Below, one piece after another: positions 4,441-55,776 of a DNA stretch of 64,000 nt (within the stretch, counting starts at the first letter, position 1; each line of letters opens with the position of its first letter). The stretch comes from Alphaproteobacteria bacterium (GTDB lineage Bacteria; Pseudomonadota; Alphaproteobacteria; RF32; CAG-239), in NCBI GenBank assembly GCA_047975765.1, contig JBKEEF010000013.1:67727-131726 (forward strand). Direction: 5' to 3'. The notes beneath the pieces were generated by a model that was not told where the DNA came from, made no database searches, and saw only the letters and a program-made list of their open reading frames with translations. A program made the position numbers and the translations under genes.

Positions 4441-6489
4441 ATGTCAGAAATAGAAAATCAAGAATTTTATGACGCGGGCAGTAATGATGCTCCTTTAATC
4501 GATTCATTGGGTGCGAATGTCAAAAGACTCATTGAAAAAGGAAAAGTGCGTGGTTTTATCACAATTGAAGAACTAAACAAAACCTTGCCGTCTGAAAGAG
4601 AAACGTCTGAACAGATTGAAGACATTATATCTGAAATTTCAGATATGGGAATTAGTCTCATCTCCGAGTCTGATGCTGATAATTTTGAAGCAGAAGTGAC
4701 TGAAGAAGATGAAGAAGATGAAAGCGGTAACTTTGATGAAAAAGAACTAGGCCGCACAGACGACCCAGTAAGAATGTATCTGAAAGAAATGGGAACGGTT
4801 GAGCTTCTTTCTCGTGAGGGCGAAATTGCCATTGCTAAAAGAATTGAAGCTGGAAAAACAGTTATGATTGATGGACTTTGCGAAAGTCCAATGACACTTC
4901 GTGCAATCGCTTCATGGAAAAATGATTTAATTGAGGGCAAAGTTCAACTGCGTGATATCGTCGATTTAGAGATGATGTATGGTGCAGATGAAGAAGCTTT
5001 GGTGTATGACGAAGAAGAAAATTCAGTTGATGATTTAGAAAAAGTTGCAGCAGATCTTGAAAAAGAAGATAATCTTGATGAAGATGATGATATCTTGGAT
5101 AACGACATTGAATTAAGTGATGCCGATGAAGAAGATGATGAAGAAGATGAAACTGAAGTAACTGAAACTGAAGGTGAAAGCAGTGAAGATGGTGATGATG
5201 AAAATTCTGGTGCCAGAAATGTTGCTTCAATCTCTTCAATGGAAGAAGCTTTGTTCGAACCTGTTTTGGAAACTTTGAACAATATCGGCGGATATCATGA
5301 TACTTTGAAGAAAATTCAAATCCAAAGACTTGAAGCGCTTATCAAGGGAAAACCAGTTAACGCAGCAACTGAGAAAAAATATTTCCAAGTTAAAAGGGAT
5401 TTGGTAGAACTTTTGAGTTCAATTCACCTTAACTCAAACAGAATTCAACAACTTGTTGAGCAGTTGAATGATATCAATAAACGTTTGATGGGTTTTGAAG
5501 GAAAACTGCTTCGCTATGCAACATCTTGCAAAGTTAAACGTGAAGATTTCTTAGAGACATATCGTAAGTCTGAGTTGGATCCTAATTGGGTAGAAAGTCT
5601 TGCGAAGAAAAAAGATAAACATTGGAATATGTTTGTCGAAAAGCATGGAAAAGAAATTGTAGAACTCAGAGAAAGTATTGCTGAAATGGCATACGAATGT
5701 GGTCTACCAATCAGTGAATATCGCCGTATGGTTGAAACAATCAAAAAAGGTGAAAGAGAAGCTGAGCGTGCTAAAAAAGAAATGATTGAAGCAAACCTTC
5801 GTTTGGTGATTTCAATTGCTAAGAAATATACAAATCGTGGCTTGCAATTCTTAGATTTGATTCAAGAAGGTAATATCGGTTTGATGAAAGCCGTTGATAA
5901 ATTTGAATATCGTCGTGGTTATAAGTTCTCAACTTATGCAACTTGGTGGATTAGACAAGCGATTACTCGTTCAATTGCAGATCAAGCAAGAACAATTCGT
6001 ATCCCTGTCCATATGATTGAAACAATTAATAAACTTGTTAGAACTTCAAGACAAATGCTTTCAGAAATGGGCAGAGAACCAATTCCAGAAGAATTAGCAG
6101 AAAGACTTTCTATGCCTTTGGAAAAAGTTCGTAAAGTTATGAAAATTGCTAAAGAACCAGTGAGTTTGGAAGCACCAGTTGGTGATGAAGAAGATTCTTC
6201 TTTGGGAGATTTTATTGCTGATGAAAGTGCATTACAACCTCTTGATTCTGCAATCCATTCAAACTTGAAAGAAACTTGCACGAAGATTTTATCTTCTCTC
6301 ACGCCAAGAGAAGAAAGAGTGCTTCGTATGAGATTTGGTATTGGTATGAATACAGACCACACTTTGGAAGAAGTTGGACAACAATTTAGTGTGACACGTG
6401 AACGTATTCGTCAGATTGAAGCGAAGGCATTGCGTAAGCTAAAACACCCAAGCCGTTCTCGTAAACTTAGAAGTTTCTTGGATAATTAA
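4441..6489 (+). CDS. rpoD: RNA polymerase sigma-70 factor
   Basis: Region 1.1, a long acidic non-conserved insert, and regions 2-4 ([50 protein letters not shown]; [17 protein letters not shown]). Confidence 0.93.
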
Positions 6490-6492
6490 AAT

Positions 6493-6530
6493 AAAAAAGC
6501 CTCCGAAATTCGGAGGCTTTTTTATTTTTT
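6493..6530. terminator. rho-independent terminator hairpin (bidirectional)
   Basis: AAAAAAGCCTCCGAAATTCGGAGGCTTTTTTATTTTTT lies between rpoD and the convergent gene. Confidence 0.65.
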
Positions 6531-30037: not shown

Positions 30038-30114
30038 GGGGGTGTAGCTCAGTTGGTTAGAGTGCTTGCCTGTCACGCAAGAAGTCGCGGGTTCGAGCCC
30101 CGTCACTCCCGCCA
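30038..30114 (+). tRNA. tRNA-Asp (anticodon GTC)
   Basis: 77-nt cloverleaf folded by hand: GGGGGTG acceptor stem, anticodon loop CTGTCAC, T-loop TTCGAGC, encoded CCA. Confidence 0.9.
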
Positions 30115-30147
30115 TTCAAAGCCTTGCTTTTGCAAGGCTTTTTGTTT

Positions 30148-31296
30148 TCATTCTGACTTTTTATTTTTCTCATTCTGACTTTTTACATATTCAACTAATT
30201 TATTTGTTGCAGTAAGTCCTATTTTTTCAGTTGGGCTTTTGTATGTGCTATTAAACATTTTTTCGCTTTCGTGACCTGTTATTACGATTGCAGCAGCACT
30301 TGTGACACCAGCTTCTATATATGCAGTGCTTCCAGAATGTCGCATTAGTCTGAAGGTATAGTTAAACCCTAGTTCTTGACAAACATTTCTAAAGTAATCT
30401 TGAAAACGTCTGACTGTGAAATCTCCAAAATCATCACAAATGATGAAATCTTTTTTAGATAATATTTCTCTTTCCAGATGTTTTGGTACAGGAAGAATTA
30501 CTTTCTTGCCTAGTCTTTCCATTTTGTTTTGAATTATGCTAAAGAAATAATGGCCATCTTTTTTGTAAAGGTCATCTTTTCTTAGTTTTAACACATCAGC
30601 TGGCCTTTGAGCAAAATATAAATCAAGTTCAGTTCCTAGCGCTATTGCTCTATATGCTTCCGCTTTGTTTTTATATTTTTCATCTTCAGCCATTTCTTTA
30701 GCTTTATTAATAATTGCATGAACATCTTCAATTGGAATATATAGTTTTTCTGGTTTTTTTCTTCTTATTCTCATATTCTCAAAAGGATTTTTCTTTGAAA
30801 GTCTTTCTTTTCTTAGTCCAAAATTGTATATTAACCTTAGAAAATCCATACAGTTTTTAGCCCATCTTTCTTTTATTTCTTCAACCAGATTTTCATATAG
30901 TTTATATGCGATGTCATAATTGAATAAATCTAAAGGAGTGTCGCTTAACATTACTCCTTTTTTGTTTTTCTTTTTTGAAAGAATTTTATAAGCATTTTCA
31001 TAATCTTTCTTTGTTCTTGCTGCTAAATCTTTGTAAAAACGGCTATCAATATATATTGTCCAGAGATAGGATAGAGATTTATTGATGATTAGATCTTTTT
31101 TGTTTCTAAATTCTTTAATCTCTTTATTTAGTTTTTCAGCTTTTGCGTATGCTTCCCACTTTCCAGAGCCAAGTGGAATTGACTTTCTTATTTCTAAACC
31201 TTCAGGAACAAGGCGAGCAGGCATAACGAAGTAATAAGATATTACTCCGTTAGCAAGTTTCTTTTCTTGAACATATTTAGGTTTATCTCTTTTCAT
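30148..31296 (-). CDS. int: tyrosine-type site-specific integrase
   Basis: 382 aa. The C-terminal catalytic region contains LMRHSGSTAYIEAGV and HESEKMFNSTY (R-H-R-Y type). Confidence 0.9.
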   Translation of the reverse strand: MKRDKPKYVQEKKLANGVISYYFVMPARLVPEGLEIRKSIPLGSGKWEAYAKAEKLNKEIKEFRNKKDLIINKSLSYLWTIYIDSRFYKDLAARTKKDYENAYKILSKKKNKKGVMLSDTPLDLFNYDIAYKLYENLVEEIKERWAKNCMDFLRLIYNFGLRKERLSKKNPFENMRIRRKKPEKLYIPIEDVHAIINKAKEMAEDEKYKNKAEAYRAIALGTELDLYFAQRPADVLKLRKDDLYKKDGHYFFSIIQNKMERLGKKVILPVPKHLEREILSKKDFIICDDFGDFTVRRFQDYFRNVCQELGFNYTFRLMRHSGSTAYIEAGVTSAAAIVITGHESEKMFNSTYKSPTEKIGLTATNKLVEYVKSQNEKNKKSE

Positions 31297-40929: not shown

Positions 40930-41607
40930 CTATAACTCTTTCATTTTGATTTGGTAATCAATCACCACAGCAGCGATATCATATTCTTTGTCGTCGGGGT
41001 GGAGAATGATATTGTTTATTGTTGGGTTGGTCGATTCGGCAACCAGAACAATTGTGTTGTTATCTGTTTTCATATATCTTTTGACAGTAGCTTCATATAG
41101 TCCGTCAGAGCTTTTTCGATATGCAATGATGTAGTCGCCATTTTCAATCTTGCCGTCATAATCATCTATGCAACAACATATAAGCGTTGTTTTTTCTGGC
41201 GGAAAGATTTTATTCATCGAATCGCCACGAACTCCTAGAGCGAAAATTCTTTTGTTTTTGAGGTTATCATTAACAGGATAATATACTTCTTCCCATTCAT
41301 CTTCAGGGAGTTGCGTCGCTTCATTCCATGCACCAGCTTGAACAAAACCGATTTTTGAAATTGTTGTTATTTGATTATTATTTTCATAGTCTAATTCTTT
41401 GGTAACACCTGATATATATTTTGTAAAGTTTTCTAAATTTATGTCTAAAAATTTAGCAAAAGAAACGATTTCTTTTTGCTGAATTTCCCTAATACCTTTA
41501 ATTATAGCACTTAAATGGGGTGGGGCAATGTTAACATAATTAGCTAATTCTTTTTGTGTTTTTCCAAGATCTTTCAATCTATCTTTTATAAACTCATATT
41601 TTGTCAT
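40930..41607 (-). CDS. cI: CI-like repressor (HTH_XRE plus S24 LexA-like peptidase)
   Basis: N-terminal HTH (KTQKELANYVNIAPPHLSAIIKG). C-terminal S24 with ALGVRGDSM and a Lys further downstream. Confidence 0.85.
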   Translation of the reverse strand: MTKYEFIKDRLKDLGKTQKELANYVNIAPPHLSAIIKGIREIQQKEIVSFAKFLDINLENFTKYISGVTKELDYENNNQITTISKIGFVQAGAWNEATQLPEDEWEEVYYPVNDNLKNKRIFALGVRGDSMNKIFPPEKTTLICCCIDDYDGKIENGDYIIAYRKSSDGLYEATVKRYMKTDNNTIVLVAESTNPTINNIILHPDDKEYDIAAVVIDYQIKMKEL

Positions 41608-48332: not shown

Positions 48333-48432
48333 AGTTATAAAGCCCCGAGAGATTGGGGCTTTACATTTTATGTAAATTATGCTACCTATGGTGTTAGATA
48401 TAACTTTCGTAAAATCTAACAGGAAAACAATA

Positions 48433-48846
48433 ATGGCTAATGTATATGATGTTGCTAAACACATTTTAGAGAAGATGGGTAAAGTTACAGGGATGAAACT
48501 CCAAAAGCTTTGTTATTACTCTCAAGCTTGGTCATTGGTTTGGGATGAAGAGCCTCTATTTTCTAACCCAATTAAAGCATGGAAATACGGTCCAGTTTGT
48601 CATGATCTATATAATTTGCACGATGGACAATTTATTGTTGAGATAAGTAAAGATCTTACTTCACGTTGTGAGAATAATCTCACAGAGAAACAAGTTGAGA
48701 CAATAGATGCTGTGATTAGAGATTATGGTGATTTCACTGCACAACAATTGAGCGACTTAACACATTCTGAGGATCCATGGAAAAATGCTAAACAGAATGA
48801 AATTATATCTGCTACAGCAATGCACGAGTTTTATAGCAGTTTATAG
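48433..48846 (+). CDS. Panacea-domain (DUF4065, COG3600 GepA/SocA-like) protein, putative PanA antitoxin
   Basis: VAKHILEKMGKVTGMKLQKLCYYSQAWSLVWDEEPLFSNPIKAWKYGPVCHDLY matches the DUF4065 core (KLQKLLYYAQ..W...G.PLF...AW..GPV). Confidence 0.65.
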   Translation: MANVYDVAKHILEKMGKVTGMKLQKLCYYSQAWSLVWDEEPLFSNPIKAWKYGPVCHDLYNLHDGQFIVEISKDLTSRCENNLTEKQVETIDAVIRDYGDFTAQQLSDLTHSEDPWKNAKQNEIISATAMHEFYSSL

Positions 48847-48861
48847 ATATAATGGTGTTGT

Positions 48862-49332
48862 ATGTCCAAGGTAAATAAGAAGGCTAAGGTTAATCGTTCT
48901 AATATAAAATCAAATACTAAAGTATCAAAAATAGGGTCTTTGGCAGATAATAATAGATTTAAGTGGGCTTTGAGAAGTGATATTGTTGACTGGGATTGGA
49001 GACATAATGATTTCAGTTTTGGAGATAAAATAAAAGATTTGCTTATCTTTTATAATAAAATAAAGCCAACTTTAGATAGCTATGCACAAATGACATGGGA
49101 CGAAGTAAATCTAAGAAAGCATTGCCATTCTTGGGACATTACCTATCTTCATAGTGATTTAATTAAAAGATTCAAAGACAGATTTAGGTCTGAGGAATGT
49201 TCAGAAACGCTTTATCAAATAAATATTAATCAAAAACATAGGATAATAGGCTTCAAAGAAGGCGAGGTTTTTTATATTATGTGGAATGACCCTAATCATA
49301 AGGCTTATATTACACAAAAAAAGAATACATAG
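48862..49332 (+). CDS. candidate toxin partner of the PanA-like gene (novel; RelE/YoeB-like C-terminal motif)
   Basis: 156 aa, basic N-terminus, C-terminal HRIIGFKEGEVFYIMWNDPNHKAY. Starts 16 bp after the PanA-like stop. Confidence 0.35.
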   Translation: MSKVNKKAKVNRSNIKSNTKVSKIGSLADNNRFKWALRSDIVDWDWRHNDFSFGDKIKDLLIFYNKIKPTLDSYAQMTWDEVNLRKHCHSWDITYLHSDLIKRFKDRFRSEECSETLYQININQKHRIIGFKEGEVFYIMWNDPNHKAYITQKKNT

Positions 49333-49473: not shown

Positions 49474-49549
49474 TGCGAGATGGAGAAGATGTTATCTCGT
49501 TCCGCTCATAACGGAAAAATCGTAGGTTCAAATCCTACTCTCGCAACCA
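49474..49549 (+). tRNA. phage-encoded tRNA with CAT anticodon (Met or Ile2)
   Basis: Manual cloverleaf: acceptor TGCGAGA/TCTCGCA, D-stem GAGA/TCTC, anticodon stem TTCCG/CGGAA with loop CTCATAA, T-arm GTAGG-TTCAAAT-CCTAC, discriminator A, encoded CCA. Only position 19 is atypical. Confidence 0.6.
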
Positions 49550-50177: not shown

Positions 50178-51713
50178 ATGAATCCATTGTTGCTAGGTTC
50201 TTTCCTACTTAGTCAGCCATTTGAGATTTGGCTCAGATTCTTGTTTAAGAAAGTGGAAAGTCGTCCTTTTGTTGTTGAAAATGTACATAGGAGTATTTTT
50301 GAAACCTATGAAAACATTTTCAACATGAATGAAGATTACACATTCACAAATTTAAATCTTCCGCCCAGGTCTGGAAAAACTATTATTGCTGAATATTTTC
50401 TTATTTATTGTCTTCTAAAGGCTGCAATAAATAAAAAGGGAACAAATTGGATATATATATCATATTCAATTAAACTTTTGAAAGAAGTATCATCTGGTAT
50501 TAAAAATATTGTAGAATCACAGATATTTAAATTATTGTATGGAGATCAGTATTTCAATATTCATCAATCTGATATTGAATTTACAGATGATGCTTTCGAA
50601 GATTACTATAAATCAATTGGTGAAAGTAAAGAAGTTATTAAATTTTCATCAACAGATATTACGCTTGGTAGAAGCAGAATTGTTCTTTCTCCTCTTGGTG
50701 GGCAAATCACAGGATTTGGTGCTGGTGTTCGTGGTGGAGAAGACTATGTTAGCGGTGGTATATTCTTAGATGATATTAATAAAATTCAAGATACTGTACG
50801 GTCAGAACTTTTAAGAGAAAAAACAAGACAATATTTTTCAGGTGTTATTTTCTCAAGAAGAAACAATCCAAAAGTTTTAATTATGAACATTCAGCAACGT
50901 GTTCATATTGAAGATATGACGGGATATTTAGAAGATACATACAACTTCAAGACAATCAAAGCTCCTTTGATTGGGGAAACAGGAATATGTCAAATTCCAA
51001 GTCAGTATGACCAAAGAACTATAGATATGCTTAAAAAGGATAATTTTACTTTTCAGGCTCAATATCAACAAGATCCAATTCTCGAAGGTGGATATCTTAT
51101 TAAAACAGATTTTATTAAAAGATTTGAAGAACCTTTGGTGACCTATAAACAAATGTTTATTGTTTGCGATACAGCTTTTAGCGAGAAGAAGTCATCAGAT
51201 TTTTCCGTCTTTGGGTTGTTTGGAATAGATGAAAAAAATAATATTTGGCTTGTTGAAGGTTATTGTAAGAGAGTTTCATTTCCAGACTTGAAACGAGACT
51301 TAAGGAGTTTTTACCTTTCTGCAGTATATAAATTTGGTAAATATAACAATATAAGCACAATATATGTTGAAAATAAAGGCTCTGGAATAAGCTTAATTCA
51401 ACAGTTGAGGGAAGATGGACTACCAATAAAAGAGCTATCACCAACATATTATAATGCTGAGTTTAAGAAAGAAGAAGTTTCTGATAAATATACTAGGTTC
51501 TTAGAAATATCCGCTGACATAGAAAGCGGATATTTTTATATGCCTAGAGAAGCTCATTTTTTAATGGAACTTATTCGCCAATGTGAATCTTTTACAGGTG
51601 GTAAACAATCCTATCATGACGATTGGGTTGATGTGCTTATATATGCTTTAAAAATTAGAAGAAAAAATATTCAAGATATTGATTGGCAAAATTTCGGGAA
51701 CATATTTAGATGA
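50178..51713 (+). CDS. terL: terminase large subunit
   Basis: Walker A PPRSGKT. C-terminal RNaseH-like nuclease with CDTAFSEKKSSDFSVFGLFG. Confidence 0.88.
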   Translation: MNPLLLGSFLLSQPFEIWLRFLFKKVESRPFVVENVHRSIFETYENIFNMNEDYTFTNLNLPPRSGKTIIAEYFLIYCLLKAAINKKGTNWIYISYSIKLLKEVSSGIKNIVESQIFKLLYGDQYFNIHQSDIEFTDDAFEDYYKSIGESKEVIKFSSTDITLGRSRIVLSPLGGQITGFGAGVRGGEDYVSGGIFLDDINKIQDTVRSELLREKTRQYFSGVIFSRRNNPKVLIMNIQQRVHIEDMTGYLEDTYNFKTIKAPLIGETGICQIPSQYDQRTIDMLKKDNFTFQAQYQQDPILEGGYLIKTDFIKRFEEPLVTYKQMFIVCDTAFSEKKSSDFSVFGLFGIDEKNNIWLVEGYCKRVSFPDLKRDLRSFYLSAVYKFGKYNNISTIYVENKGSGISLIQQLREDGLPIKELSPTYYNAEFKKEEVSDKYTRFLEISADIESGYFYMPREAHFLMELIRQCESFTGGKQSYHDDWVDVLIYALKIRRKNIQDIDWQNFGNIFR

Positions 51714-53659
51714 ATTTAGTAAATAAGATATTTGGAAAAAATAACAATAAGAATAAAGATAAAATACAAAATGATTGGATAGGTTTCAATTTTTCTCTAA
51801 AATCTTTGGAAGATAAAGATAAAATTGTAGAAATAGTTGAACCAAAAACATTAGCAAATATGCGTCTTGAAGGTAATGCTAATGATTATGGTTCAGGAAA
51901 GGGAATAAAATTATATAATTCTCATAAGCTTAAGATGGATAATCAGTGGGTTAATCCTTTTAGTTCTGTAAACACTGGGTATGGAACTGCCCATCTTTCA
52001 TTATATATGTATCAACCAGTTAATTATTACCAATGTGCTGTTATGGCACAAGATCCACTTTTTGCAAGGCTATTTAGTATTTTATCTGATGAACCCCTTG
52101 CTAAAGGCGGAGAAATAAGAACAAAGGATACAAAAGAAGATAAATTTTTTGATGAAATTGATGTCTTGGTAACAAGATATAAAATTATTGAGACTGTTAA
52201 ATTAGCTCTTAAAAAATCTTATAGCTTAGGTGGTTGTCTGGTTTTAAAAGATTGCGGGTCCAACAATCTAGAGTTACCATTTAGAAAATCAGATTATAAA
52301 AAATTCAAGGGATTTAGAATTATTGAACCTATGAATTGTACAGCTGTTGATGTTAATACTACAGAACCTGCAAAAGAAAATTATATGGACCCAGATAAGT
52401 GGTATATTATTGGTTTAGGAGTCGTCCATAAAAGCCATGTTATTAAATTTTCATTAAATGAACCTGAAGAATTTCTTAAGCCTATTTGTATGTATTTGGG
52501 AATGCCTTTAACGCAAATATTAAAGCAAGATGTAGCAAATTCAAATCTAGCTTCTCAAGGTCTCGCAAATATGATGAACAGATTTAGAAATATATATCTC
52601 AAAGTTGACGATACAAATTTTACTGGATCTGGAGCTTCTAATTTTAGATCGAGACTTGAAGCTATGGGGATATTACAAGATAATTTTAATGTCACTCCTC
52701 TTAAAAAAGATGAAGATGTTGTTCAACTTGTATCATCAATAGCTGGAATGAATGAATCTGTTGAGCTTTTCTATCAAATTGTAGCTTCAAAATCAGGTGT
52801 TCACTTCTCAAAATTATTCAAAACATCTCAAGGTTTAAATAATGATGGAGAAGGTGACAGAACAAATCATTATGATAACCTTAAAGCAGTTCAATCATAT
52901 CTTTCTCCAAAAATGGTTGAGATGTATAATATTATTGGAAAAATATATACTCAAGATGATGATTTTGAATTTATAGCTTATGATTTTAATGAGCTTGAAA
53001 TTCCTACACCAAAAGAGAAAGCGGATCTAATTAAAGCACATATTGAAGCAGGAAAAAATCTAACAGAAATGGGGGCTAAACGTGAACAGGTCTTTGAATG
53101 GATAAAAAGAAATAAAGAATTTGATTTAGAAGATATTGAACTTGATTTAGAAACAGATTTTCTTGATGAATATGAAGAAAAAGAAGTTAGTGTTCATAAT
53201 GAAAAATTTATTGAAAGTGATCATACAAGAGATGAAGATGGAAAATTTACAAGCACTGGTTATTCTCGTGATACATCAGAATATTTATCCAAAGAAACCA
53301 AAGATTTTTTGGGCGAAAAATTTGAAGGATTTAAAGGAAGAGATGCTATTGATAAATTGATGGGAGAAAAAAGAGGATATGTTCCTAATGCATTTAGCCG
53401 TAAAGATATTGGAGATGTTTCTTTAATATGGGGTGATGATGAAATGGGATTGCAACATATTATTAAAAGAAGAAAAGAAACAAACCAGCCCATTGGAAGA
53501 CTTTTCGAATCATTAACAGAAGTTATTGAGAAAGGAAATATTTCAGAAGGCAAGAAAGGAAGATTTGAAATAAACTATAAAGGCAAGTTAGCAATTATTG
53601 AGCCCAAACTTTACAATGAAACGATAAATTTTCTTTTTACTGCTTATTACGAAAGATAA
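51710..53659 (+). CDS. portal protein with C-terminal extra domain
   Basis: 649 aa between terL and MuF, with an ATGA overlap onto terL. An acidic linker at about residues 465-495 is followed by a C-terminal module of about 150 aa. Confidence 0.65.
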   Translation: MNLVNKIFGKNNNKNKDKIQNDWIGFNFSLKSLEDKDKIVEIVEPKTLANMRLEGNANDYGSGKGIKLYNSHKLKMDNQWVNPFSSVNTGYGTAHLSLYMYQPVNYYQCAVMAQDPLFARLFSILSDEPLAKGGEIRTKDTKEDKFFDEIDVLVTRYKIIETVKLALKKSYSLGGCLVLKDCGSNNLELPFRKSDYKKFKGFRIIEPMNCTAVDVNTTEPAKENYMDPDKWYIIGLGVVHKSHVIKFSLNEPEEFLKPICMYLGMPLTQILKQDVANSNLASQGLANMMNRFRNIYLKVDDTNFTGSGASNFRSRLEAMGILQDNFNVTPLKKDEDVVQLVSSIAGMNESVELFYQIVASKSGVHFSKLFKTSQGLNNDGEGDRTNHYDNLKAVQSYLSPKMVEMYNIIGKIYTQDDDFEFIAYDFNELEIPTPKEKADLIKAHIEAGKNLTEMGAKREQVFEWIKRNKEFDLEDIELDLETDFLDEYEEKEVSVHNEKFIESDHTRDEDGKFTSTGYSRDTSEYLSKETKDFLGEKFEGFKGRDAIDKLMGEKRGYVPNAFSRKDIGDVSLIWGDDEMGLQHIIKRRKETNQPIGRLFESLTEVIEKGNISEGKKGRFEINYKGKLAIIEPKLYNETINFLFTAYYER

Positions 53660-53801
53660 AAAAAGCCGTGCAAGAGGGGTTTACTAATGCACGGTTACCT
53701 GATTGACAGACACTGATTGGGGGCTAGCCCCTTCCTCAATCAACTTTTATGAAATAATAGTATATTAATATAATCAAATTGTCAATAAAAAAGGATGTAA
53801 A

Positions 53802-54662
53802 ATGAGAGGTCTAACAGTTGATACTTCACCTAAAAGACCATATTCAGAATATTATTATAGGAATGCTCTTGAAAAAGAGACAGATAAGTTTTTGAAGAAG
53901 ACAATAAGTACCTCAAAAAGACATTTCTTAAACCTTGAGAAAGAAAAAAATAATAGAGGTTTTGAAGACATTATAAAAGCTTTTGTTTCTTTATATGTTG
54001 TCAATTACGGAATATATATAAAAAATTCCGAGAAGATTGTTAATAAGTTTCTGAACATAGCACAAAAAGACTCTGCTGTTGCCTTCAAACGAGCAATGAA
54101 AAAAATTACAAAAGAAAATCTTTCATTTAATTTAAATGCACCTATTTTTAAGGATGTATTGAAACTTAAAATTAGACAGAATGTTTCTTTAATTAAGACA
54201 ATATCAACCCAGTCTTTTTCAAATATAGAAACGATTGTTTATGATGCTGTAACCAAAGGTCAGGGATGGGGAGAGATTGAAGAAAGTTTATTTCATCAAT
54301 ATCATATTTCTACTGAAAAAATAAAAAAGATTGCAAGAGACCAAGCTGCTAAGACAACTCAATCTCTAAATGAACTGTCACAGAGACAATCAGGGATTGA
54401 GTATTTTGAATGGCAGACTATGGAGGATGAAAGAGTATCTGAAGGATTTGGGGGGCATGAAAAACTTAATGGAAAAATATATAAATGGGGCGATACTGAA
54501 AATTACCCCATTATTGATTCATATGGAAATCGTGGTGTTCCTTCTGAAAGGGTGAACTGCAGATGTATTGCTTTGGCAGTTATACTCAGAGAAAATGAAG
54601 TATTGATTAAGCAAAGCGATGGTAGTTATAAAAGGGAAATAAAGAGAAATGCAAAAGTTTAA
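53802..54662 (+). CDS. head morphogenesis protein (Mu gpF / SPP1 gp7 family)
   Basis: ARDQAAKTTQSLNELSQRQSGIEYFEWQTMEDERVSEGFGGHEKLNGKIY...RVNCRCIA matches Phage_Mu_F. Confidence 0.82.
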   Translation: MRGLTVDTSPKRPYSEYYYRNALEKETDKFLKKTISTSKRHFLNLEKEKNNRGFEDIIKAFVSLYVVNYGIYIKNSEKIVNKFLNIAQKDSAVAFKRAMKKITKENLSFNLNAPIFKDVLKLKIRQNVSLIKTISTQSFSNIETIVYDAVTKGQGWGEIEESLFHQYHISTEKIKKIARDQAAKTTQSLNELSQRQSGIEYFEWQTMEDERVSEGFGGHEKLNGKIYKWGDTENYPIIDSYGNRGVPSERVNCRCIALAVILRENEVLIKQSDGSYKREIKRNAKV

Positions 54663-55776
54663 GATTGAAAATAATTCATCTCTTCGTCACAAAGATGATA
54701 ATGGATATCTCTATGTCCAAGAAAGTCCTATCTTAAAAAGTGGAGTTTTAGAATATTATGGAGAAGAACTTATTAGAGGTGGTAGTGACGTAATTGATGG
54801 AGTTAATATAGACCCTGATAAGATATATAAAGTTTATATTTCAGTTGATGAACTTGAAAAATCAAAAGATAGTTTTACTCTCCTTCCGATTGTCAATGAT
54901 CATACTTGGCTTGGAGATGAAGGGGATGATGCTAAGGACTATCAAGAAGGCACGACAGGAGAAAAGGCTGTTGTAAAAGATGGCAAAATTTATGTTCCTT
55001 TAAAATTCACAGGTAAAGAAACAGTTGAATCCTTGGAAAATAAGGAAAAAGAAGAGTTATCTGCGAGCTATACAAATAAACTTAAAAAATCAGATAGTGA
55101 ATATGATTTTGTAGCTACGGAGATAAAAGGCAATCACATTGCCTTGGTTGAACAGGGTCGATGTGGCTCTGATGTTAGAGTATTAAATAACAATATGGAG
55201 ATTTCAAAAATGAAAACCAAAAATGAAGAAGAAAGCAAAGTCGATAATGAAGACAAAAGAAAGCTAATTGATGAAGTTGCTGGAATTTTGAAAGACAAAA
55301 TCGATGATGAAATTTTAAAAAATATCATTAAGAAAATTGAAAAATTATCTTATGATACATCTGAAAATTCAAAAACAGATAATGAAGATAAAGAAGAAAA
55401 GTCTGAAAATGAAGATGATAAATCTGAAAAAAAAGAAGTTAAGTCTGAAAATGAGGACAAAGAAGATGAAAAGGAAATTGCTAAAAAGGTTGAAAATTCA
55501 ATTATAAGCAAAATTTCTAAGGAAAAGGAAGAACTTTCTAAAGCATATAATCATGCAAAAGCAGCAGGTATTGAGGTTGATCCTTTTGGATCAACAGCAA
55601 AAGATATTTATGTATCAGTTCTTAACCATAAAGGTGTAGAAGTTGATGGTAAAGAAACAACTAAGGAGCTTGAGCTTATGTTAAGAACTTGTAATGCTGT
55701 GTCAGTGAAAGTTGATAATGCTTATAATTATGGGTCTTCAGATAAAAATTTAGAAGAAAAAACATTTAACTTTTAA
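54649..55776 (+). CDS. putative scaffolding protein (DUF2213-like N-terminus, acidic K/E/D-rich middle)
   Basis: Position between MuF and capsid. Long charged low-complexity segment. Confidence 0.5.
   Translation: MQKFKIENNSSLRHKDDNGYLYVQESPILKSGVLEYYGEELIRGGSDVIDGVNIDPDKIYKVYISVDELEKSKDSFTLLPIVNDHTWLGDEGDDAKDYQEGTTGEKAVVKDGKIYVPLKFTGKETVESLENKEKEELSASYTNKLKKSDSEYDFVATEIKGNHIALVEQGRCGSDVRVLNNNMEISKMKTKNEEESKVDNEDKRKLIDEVAGILKDKIDDEILKNIIKKIEKLSYDTSENSKTDNEDKEEKSENEDDKSEKKEVKSENEDKEDEKEIAKKVENSIISKISKEKEELSKAYNHAKAAGIEVDPFGSTAKDIYVSVLNHKGVEVDGKETTKELELMLRTCNAVSVKVDNAYNYGSSDKNLEEKTFNF

Follow-up and report, generated by a model that had tools for sequence, protein, structure and literature searches.

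A prophage portal protein with an exchangeable C-terminal PBECR1 domain, a candidate virion-borne RNase effector

Is the long C-terminal part of a phage portal protein a piece of the portal itself, or cargo that the portal carries? The question is raised by a 64,000-nt stretch of DNA from an Alphaproteobacteria bacterium (contig JBKEEF010000013.1 of assembly GCA_047975765.1, positions 67,727 to 131,726, forward strand), called here the window; all coordinates without another source count from its first letter. It holds a portal open reading frame (ORF) at 51710..53659 (+), encoding 649 amino acids (AA) and a stop, with an ATG that overlaps the stop codon of the large-terminase gene (ATGA). A sequence-only reading of this DNA had claimed a portal ORF of that length and, from position 53110 (which falls in portal codon 467), an acidic linker followed by a separate module of about 150 AA that could be fused effector or toxin cargo. 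The ORF was borne out, with matches to Phage_portal_3 and PHROG 146, and the portal gene is real. We accept that its C-terminal domain belongs to PBECR1 (PF18809, phage Barnase-EndoU-ColicinE5/D-RelE like nuclease 1).

PBECR1 is the second Pfam match of the protein (residues 561-625), and scores 37.5 bits with the whole protein and 41.0 bits with the tail alone, the gathering cut-off being 27.6. The domain as a whole takes up approximately residues 541-649 (53330..53656, +; PF18809 E 2.9e-10). Residues 494-649, including a motif at the junction that is described below, have stand-alone counterparts of 155-176 AA with 48-60% identity. In an alignment of 21 PBECR1 module sequences (A2), residues A546, A561, F562, R564, G568, W574, G575, G580, L581, H583, I584, K586, R587, R588 and G609 were invariant, and T644 and A645 were conserved in at least 90%. 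The active site of PBECR domains is described as a His in the N-terminal helix together with a C-terminal Thr or Ser (PMC5512222). Both could be located here: the predicted catalytic residue His583 (codon 53456..53458, +) lies in the predicted helix 581-591, and Thr644 (codon 53639..53641, +), predicted to be the second residue of the active site, in the final strand (LFTAYY). Next to His583 is the invariant basic cluster K586-R587-R588 (53465..53473, +), which likely contacts RNA phosphate. The peptides quoted from the module in the sequence-only reading, GYVPNAF, GLQHIIKRRKE (the His helix) and INYKGKLAIIEPK, correspond to residues 556-562, 580-590 and 621-633, respectively.

An AlphaFold model of residues 494-649 had a predicted local distance difference test (pLDDT) score of 72.8, with values of 80-90 over most of the domain. 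Its topology runs from a helix through a pair of strands to the His helix, and on through a further helix to four strands; according to a 2026 preprint, PBECRs add strands ahead of the His-bearing helix. A Foldseek search with this model, of the kind suggested along with the original observation, matched toxins of the BECR (Barnase-EndoU-ColicinE5/D-RelE) type and phage polyvalent proteins. The BECR toxins were the best matches in the PDB, with CdiA-CT 7m5f_C first (E 7e-3, prob 0.94) and further matches to RelE 3bpq_B, CdiA-CT 5i4r and 6af3, a toxin-antitoxin module of Streptococcus pneumoniae. Among predicted viral structures (BFVD), seven phage proteins were matched at E <= 3e-6 with template modelling (TM) scores of 0.60-0.68, several of them polyvalent proteins of 873-1193 AA. 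Module matches among phage isolates were limited to mosaic proteins of the jhp1044 type from Helicobacter/Campylobacter (pro)phages; these are discussed by Iyer et al. (PMC5512222). A PDB sequence profile search with the module gave a single phospholipase C match, which was judged spurious. We predict that the domain is a metal-independent endoribonuclease, and in the literature, too, ribonuclease (RNase) activity of PBECR1 domains is a prediction (PMC5512222).

The portal in front of this domain is of the E217 gp19 type. Its Phage_portal_3 core (PF06381) covers residues 109-447 (52034..53050, +; Pfam E 6.8e-42), PHROGs agrees (phrog_146, E 5e-50), and the core is related to the E217/Pa193 gp19 and Pam3 portals, with PDB sequence matches to 8fvh_O (1.3e-19) and 9b41_L (2e-19). 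The profile match, the homology to solved portals and the location after the large terminase together place the protein in Phage_portal_3. The acidic string that had been read as a linker, EFDLEDIELDLETDFLDEYEEKE, corresponds to residues 470-492 (53117..53185, +), and by direct count 15 of its 23 residues are D or E. It aligns in 35/35 homologues: K466, D479 and Y488 never vary there, F468, K469, F471, L473, D474, T482 and L485 are kept in at least 90%, and three short portals (P0011, P0013 and P0017; 499-507 AA) stop a few residues past it. Since every homologue keeps the segment, even the portals that stop right behind it, it is the portal's own C-terminal tail and not a linker, and by analogy it may correspond to the inward-pointing C-terminal barrel region of E217-type portals. 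The separate module of the sequence-only reading thus stands, as about 155 residues past the acidic stretch with a Pfam family of their own, whereas the acidic linker does not.

The added part begins at approximately residue 494. It comprises a junction motif, KFIESDHTRDEDGKF (residues 499-513; 53204..53248, +), found in 103 of 114 extended homologues, a spacer (residues 514-540; 53249..53329, +) that is predicted to be flexible, and the folded domain. The spacer had a pLDDT of 42-46 in the AlphaFold module model, and residues 513-533 were below 50 in the full-length model. A reverse-strand ORF within the module (53260-53553) was unsupported and was disregarded.

A homologue search with the portal returned 203 proteins at E <= 1e-3, one of them an identical NCBI record (P0001) from a 136.7-kb contig of a metagenome-assembled genome (MAG) labelled Alphaproteobacteria bacterium. 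Relatives in the same clade, all from metagenomes and MAGs, have cores 46-50% identical to this one, whatever comes after the core. Four of them (P0011, P0013, P0017 and P0024) are core-only and end at 499-537 AA. PBECR1 is carried by P0002-P0008 and P0010, PBECR3 by a 661-AA portal cluster, LPD13 by a 657-AA cluster, LPD3 by one portal (P0088) and an ADP-ribosyltransferase exotoxin domain (ADPrib_exo_Tox) by P0090 and P0109; P0012, P0023 and P0038 have a long extension with no Pfam match. The gene order around the portal is the same in the short, PBECR1 and PBECR3 versions. Identity of the module was 51-68% in seven of the eight aligned PBECR1-bearing relatives, and 35% in P0010. Because portals with equally similar cores lack the module or carry other domains at the same position, we regard it as swappable cargo and not as part of the portal fold. 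Together with the PBECR1 match, this exchange supports the earlier suggestion that the tail is fused effector cargo. In a close relative of 605 AA (P0009), an internal deletion removes the first half of PBECR1, including the catalytic His region, which suggests cargo decay in some lineages.

Searches for this portal among described phages gave little. DNA similarity search against 50,697 phage records returned no match, and no phage in that collection covered at least 80% of the portal protein. Protein matches among phage isolates reached at most 27% identity and were limited to the portal core, and with PHROGs the portal tail matched segments of giant proteins of unknown function.

On balance, we consider it probable that the portal with its PBECR1 cargo is a released, ejected and early-acting RNase effector built on a minimal polyvalent head protein. 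The Phage_portal_3 core with its own acidic tail leads through the junction motif and the flexible spacer to the 110-residue PBECR1 domain. From the known topology of portals, whose C-termini, crown and barrel face the capsid interior (as in E217 gp19), it follows that the domain is packaged inside the capsid, in twelve copies beside the DNA end. Its release from the portal would probably be the work of the head maturation protease, cutting in the junction or close to it; the domain would exit with the DNA and cut host or defence-related RNA at the onset of infection. Packaged and injected was also the possibility raised in the sequence-only reading; injection is something that we infer here, as the literature does for such proteins. 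An immunity gene would be unneeded, with the late genes silent in the lysogen and the producing cell doomed.

Several points weigh against such a role. The PF18809 alignment spans profile positions 1-72 of 104 only, solved BECR toxins are matched weakly by Foldseek (E > 1e-3, TM 0.3-0.5), and the RNase activity of PBECR1 domains is a prediction for all of them. The full-length AlphaFold model of the portal was poor (pLDDT 53), too poor to place the acidic tail in a barrel or to fix the position of the tail relative to the barrel. The junction motif lies near the N-terminus of stand-alone proteins, a poor fit with a simple separator role. Finally, the portal itself is retained in the virion, and cleavage or ejection of the fused domain is presumed, as is a cleavage site at or near the junction.

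The retention of the portal and the presumed nature of the cleavage site also favour the main rival, by which the PBECR1 domain is packaged but remains tethered to the portal, is never injected, and does its work either earlier, within the producing cell (for example in late-phase RNA turnover by unassembled portal), or within the head as an RNA/DNA-binding accessory. The C-terminal cargo of E217/Pa193 has not been reported as cleaved, mass spectrometry having missed the N-terminal 93 residues only, and a non-catalytic binding role was proposed for the inactive PBECR of Mu gp30 (PMC5512222). We nevertheless think a permanent tether unlikely: both catalytic residues, His and Thr, have been kept, the domains that take the place of PBECR1 in other portals (ADP-ribosyltransferase, PBECR3, LPD) are typical early effectors without an obvious common structural role, and a baseplate module contains the cassette in the form of a free-standing protein. 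A still less probable explanation, to which we give little credence, is a polymorphic MuF-type toxin, paired with an immunity protein, with which the lysogen would act against bacterial competitors. Such systems, too, have a toxin-like C-terminal domain of variable kind on a conserved carrier from the phage head (PMC5576092, PMC11699363), and BECR RNases are common among polymorphic toxins, but the carrier here is the portal and not MuF. In addition, no immunity-sized ORF was found after the portal in the window, where a gap of 142 bp is followed by MuF, nor in the similarly short portal-MuF gaps of three related loci (L005, L011 and L012). In a fourth locus with a PBECR1-portal relative (L013, 4883-5125), an 80-AA ORF with a TTG start fills the gap. 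This ORF, the one finding of its kind on the side of an immunity pair, is absent in L011, L012 and the window, and could be a lineage-specific immunity candidate or spurious. A missing immunity ORF argues against a competition toxin and fits an effector made in the lytic phase only.

Two further explanations fared worse. The identical record P0001 is named 'anti-CBASS protein Acb1 family protein' at NCBI, and fusions of 2H phosphoesterases to portals do exist (PMC5512222), so that an Acb1-family nuclease had to be considered. Yet the C-terminal domain is PBECR1, and no Acb1 or 2H domain was found in the portal protein with Pfam (E <= 1), NCBIfam or PDB sequences (E <= 10). We rejected the name as evidence of function; it seems to be an artefact of annotation carried by the portal family, and an anti-CBASS nuclease at this place is very improbable. 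The poorest case is that of a C-terminal region integral to the portal fold, as crown or barrel. E217-type portals have a C-terminal helical barrel and residues 470-492 are conserved portal sequence, but portals of 499-507 AA with cores 47-50% identical have nothing past approximately residue 495, unrelated domains sit at the same place in other portals, and the region has its own Pfam family and predicted fold. The region is not kept in all portals, and for residues 494-649 we take this explanation as refuted by the comparison of homologues, with hardly any probability left to it.

What is shared by most of the portals with different cargos is the junction motif. Its general form is [WF]xExxHPR[DAG]xxG[KRQ]F followed by a Gly/Ser-rich spacer, and the usual form in portals is N-x-W-x-E-x-x-H-P-R-x-x-D-G-K-F, with N-x-[WF]-x-E-x-x-H-P-R-D-x-D-G-K-F as the family consensus. 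It is the last element common to most extended portals before the cargos diverge; those bearing an ADP-ribosyltransferase (ART) diverge just ahead of it. The window holds a single copy. A profile of the 35-residue junction region, searched against 1.84 billion cluster representatives, had 2,346 protein matches with E <= 1e-3, of which 232 reached E <= 1e-10; a giant phage protein often has 3-18 copies, at intervals the size of a domain. At least two copies were found in 144 of the best 150 proteins, with up to 15 by a strict pattern and 18 by HMMER, at a median spacing of 265 residues in this set, and in 64 of 149 proteins from it the motif lay at most 70 residues from the N-terminus. The motif positions are conserved at 95% (E), 100% (H), 95% (P), 99% (R), 98% (G) and 90% (F), and a G/S-rich stretch comes next. 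Pfam domains lie between the copies, e.g., ADPrib_exo_Tox at 126-271 between motifs at 66 and 334; others are ART-PolyVal, GNAT, Pyr_redox_2, Zeta_toxin and an XkdF-type prohead protease. In 62 further motif proteins the commonest partners were ADP-ribosyltransferases, NUDIX and GNAT, and Portal_Mu, MuF, DUF2213, LPD3 and topoisomerase IB also occurred. In locus L007, the motif is at portal residues about 555-570.

Stand-alone genes for the motif with PBECR1 sit in the baseplate module of a related E217-like myophage. In one such locus (L001, 5698-6522), the stand-alone PBECR1 gene (6001-6522) is in frame with an upstream Pam3_gp18-like baseplate gene, from which it is separated by a TGA and one codon; the arrangement could be a coincidence or a read-through fusion to the baseplate protein. 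In another locus (L009, 1698-4403), a 901-AA 2H phosphoesterase protein is encoded a few genes upstream of a motif protein with an XkdF-type prohead protease at its end; it is probably a further case in which a head protein and an effector are fused, in a phage unrelated to this one.

Pfam has no model of the junction motif, a literature text search with several of its spellings gave unrelated papers only, and Iyer et al. (PMC5512222) make no mention of linkers, glycine-rich spacers or such a motif. Phage Mu was tried as a link between the motif and cleavage and was rejected, as neither its portal nor its MuF protein has the motif. The motif is kept between a prophage of 31% GC and a Burkholderia phage, and this conservation speaks for a function of the peptide itself and not of a mere recombination joint. 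We raise as a tentative possibility, one we would not yet call probable, that it is an undescribed general signal of phage virion-borne effector cassettes. This suggestion is based on its position ahead of the cargo in most extended portals of the clade and in the distant portal of Burkholderia phage vB_E159, on its place near the N-terminus of stand-alone cargo proteins and its repetition up to 15-18 times in giant proteins, and on its bracketing of ART, NUDIX, GNAT, zeta-toxin, topoisomerase IB and protease domains. The motif might mark where a head protease splits polyproteins into effectors, or might serve as a docking peptide in the loading of virion cargo. Its N-terminal position in stand-alone proteins suits a targeting peptide no less than it suits a separator.

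The portal belongs to an E217/Pam3-like contractile-tailed prophage integrated beside a tRNA-Asp gene. The tRNA-Asp (30038-30114) adjoins a tyrosine integrase gene (30148-31296, -), and this region (30038-31296) is likely the left end and attachment site of the prophage; host genes, dnaG, rpoD and pgk among them, lie to the left, and the right end is outside the window. After the integrase come genes for a Bro-N protein, RecT, DUF1351 and YqaJ recombination proteins, and a CI-like S24/HTH repressor is encoded at 40930-41607. Just before the packaging genes, an ORF of 156 AA without a family match (48862-49332) comes after a gene with a Panacea (SocA-like antitoxin) domain (48379-48846), and the two (48379-49332) may be a prophage-borne toxin-antitoxin pair. 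A tRNA-Met gene (49474-49549) is located inside the prophage, directly upstream of the small terminase gene.

The late operon runs from the small terminase through the large terminase (50178..51713, +; Pfam, PHROGs), portal, MuF, a DUF2213-type protein and cement protein to the major capsid protein, and the order terS-terL-portal-MuF-scaffold-cement-capsid is kept in relatives. Downstream of the capsid gene are those for the collar, neck terminator, sheath and tube, all of E217 type, and for a tape measure. The MuF/SPP1 gp7-type minor head protein (53802..54662, +; PF04233, TIGR01641) has 286 AA and no C-terminal extension or cargo. The DUF2213/Pa193_gp24-type protein (54649..55776, +; Pfam, PHROGs) is a scaffold or protease: PHROGs labels it head maturation protease, while its counterpart in Pa193 is a scaffold (PMC11456595), and it is a candidate for the processing enzyme. 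The portal-MuF gap (53660..53801, +) contains a hairpin directly past the portal stop (53664-53696), inside the late operon, with a 9-bp stem. It has no T-run, and we rejected a canonical terminator as its identity; the fold of the 151-nt intergenic stretch had a z-score of -2.2.

Effectors carried in the virion act before phage gene expression, and this makes them candidates for first-strike counter-defence or host takeover. The present locus is a compact single-cargo case, with one portal, one junction and one 110-residue predicted RNase, and the cargo-free and cargo-swapped portals with equally similar cores are natural controls. It could serve to test the release and injection of portal-fused domains, which since 2017 have only been inferred. 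The finding itself is of modest interest, and the junction motif is the part most worth following up. If functional, the motif would give a sequence handle for cargo boundaries in thousands of giant phage proteins; if it is a cut site or docking peptide, release of portal-fused cargo would become directly testable.

Among known systems, the MuF toxins (Bxa, Apk2) resemble this portal in having a head-protein carrier, a variable C-terminal toxic enzyme and a location near portal and terminase genes in temperate phages. They differ in that the carrier is an N-terminal MuF domain with an immunity gene behind it, a small downstream ORF following 89% of MuF toxin genes (Jamet et al. 2017), whereas here the portal is the carrier, MuF is cargo-free and no immunity gene follows. 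With BECR RNase toxins (colicin D/E5, CdiA-CT, RelE/HigB) the domain would share the predicted fold and active-site logic. Their sequences are not significantly similar to it, the domain has two additional strands ahead of the His helix, and those toxins use secretion or a toxin-antitoxin pair, whereas delivery here, if any, would be by the virion. Alt and the internal proteins of phage T4 are free in the head and are targeted via a cleaved N-terminal sequence. T4 Alt and IPI-III, head-carried and ejected with the DNA, act before phage transcription (PMC5512222), and the proposed logic of head-carried effectors is alike; the difference is that the cargo here is covalently joined to the portal.

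Closer in carrier are PB1, E217 and Pa193, with the same portal family and virion type; the cement, collar, sheath and tube proteins of our prophage match E217/Pam3 families. Their portals, too, have a C-terminal extension past the inward-facing barrel. The available text of the E217/Pa193 gp19 cryo-electron microscopy papers (8fvh, 9b41) gives no density for residues 529-765 past this barrel (Pa193: PMC11456595) and no name for the domain there, and in PB1 the extension holds an enzyme domain, the gp18 portal (L022, 3112-5421) being a Phage_portal_3 protein with an inorganic pyrophosphatase (InPase)-like domain (PF18823) at residues 639-757. In contrast to our case, that cargo is InPase-like, the HPRDxxGKF motif is absent, and the phage is virulent and not a prophage. 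The 759-AA portal of the cultured Burkholderia phage vB_E159 (phiE131/phiE058 group) is built of Phage_portal_3 followed by an acidic tail, FKEDDHPRDADGKF, a spacer rich in Gly, and PBECR3. It agrees with the portal described here in the acidic tail, the HPRDxDGKF motif and the spacer, but the cargo is PBECR3 instead of PBECR1, and the core of our portal is only approximately 26% identical to those of the Burkholderia phages.

The nearest counterparts are the PBECR-portal and PBECR-MuF fusions reported among phage polyvalent proteins by Iyer, Burroughs, Anand, de Souza and Aravind in 2017 (PMC5512222), who infer packaging and injection for them and call the portal-PBECR fusion 'the simplest architecture' of polyvalent proteins. 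Our portal shares with them the C-terminal PBECR, the location in the head-packaging module and the His/Thr configuration, and like other polyvalent proteins it joins unrelated domains, portal and PBECR1, in one polypeptide of a head module. The portal-PBECR class was thus already described computationally in 2017, and the protein of this prophage is a new member and a good example of it.

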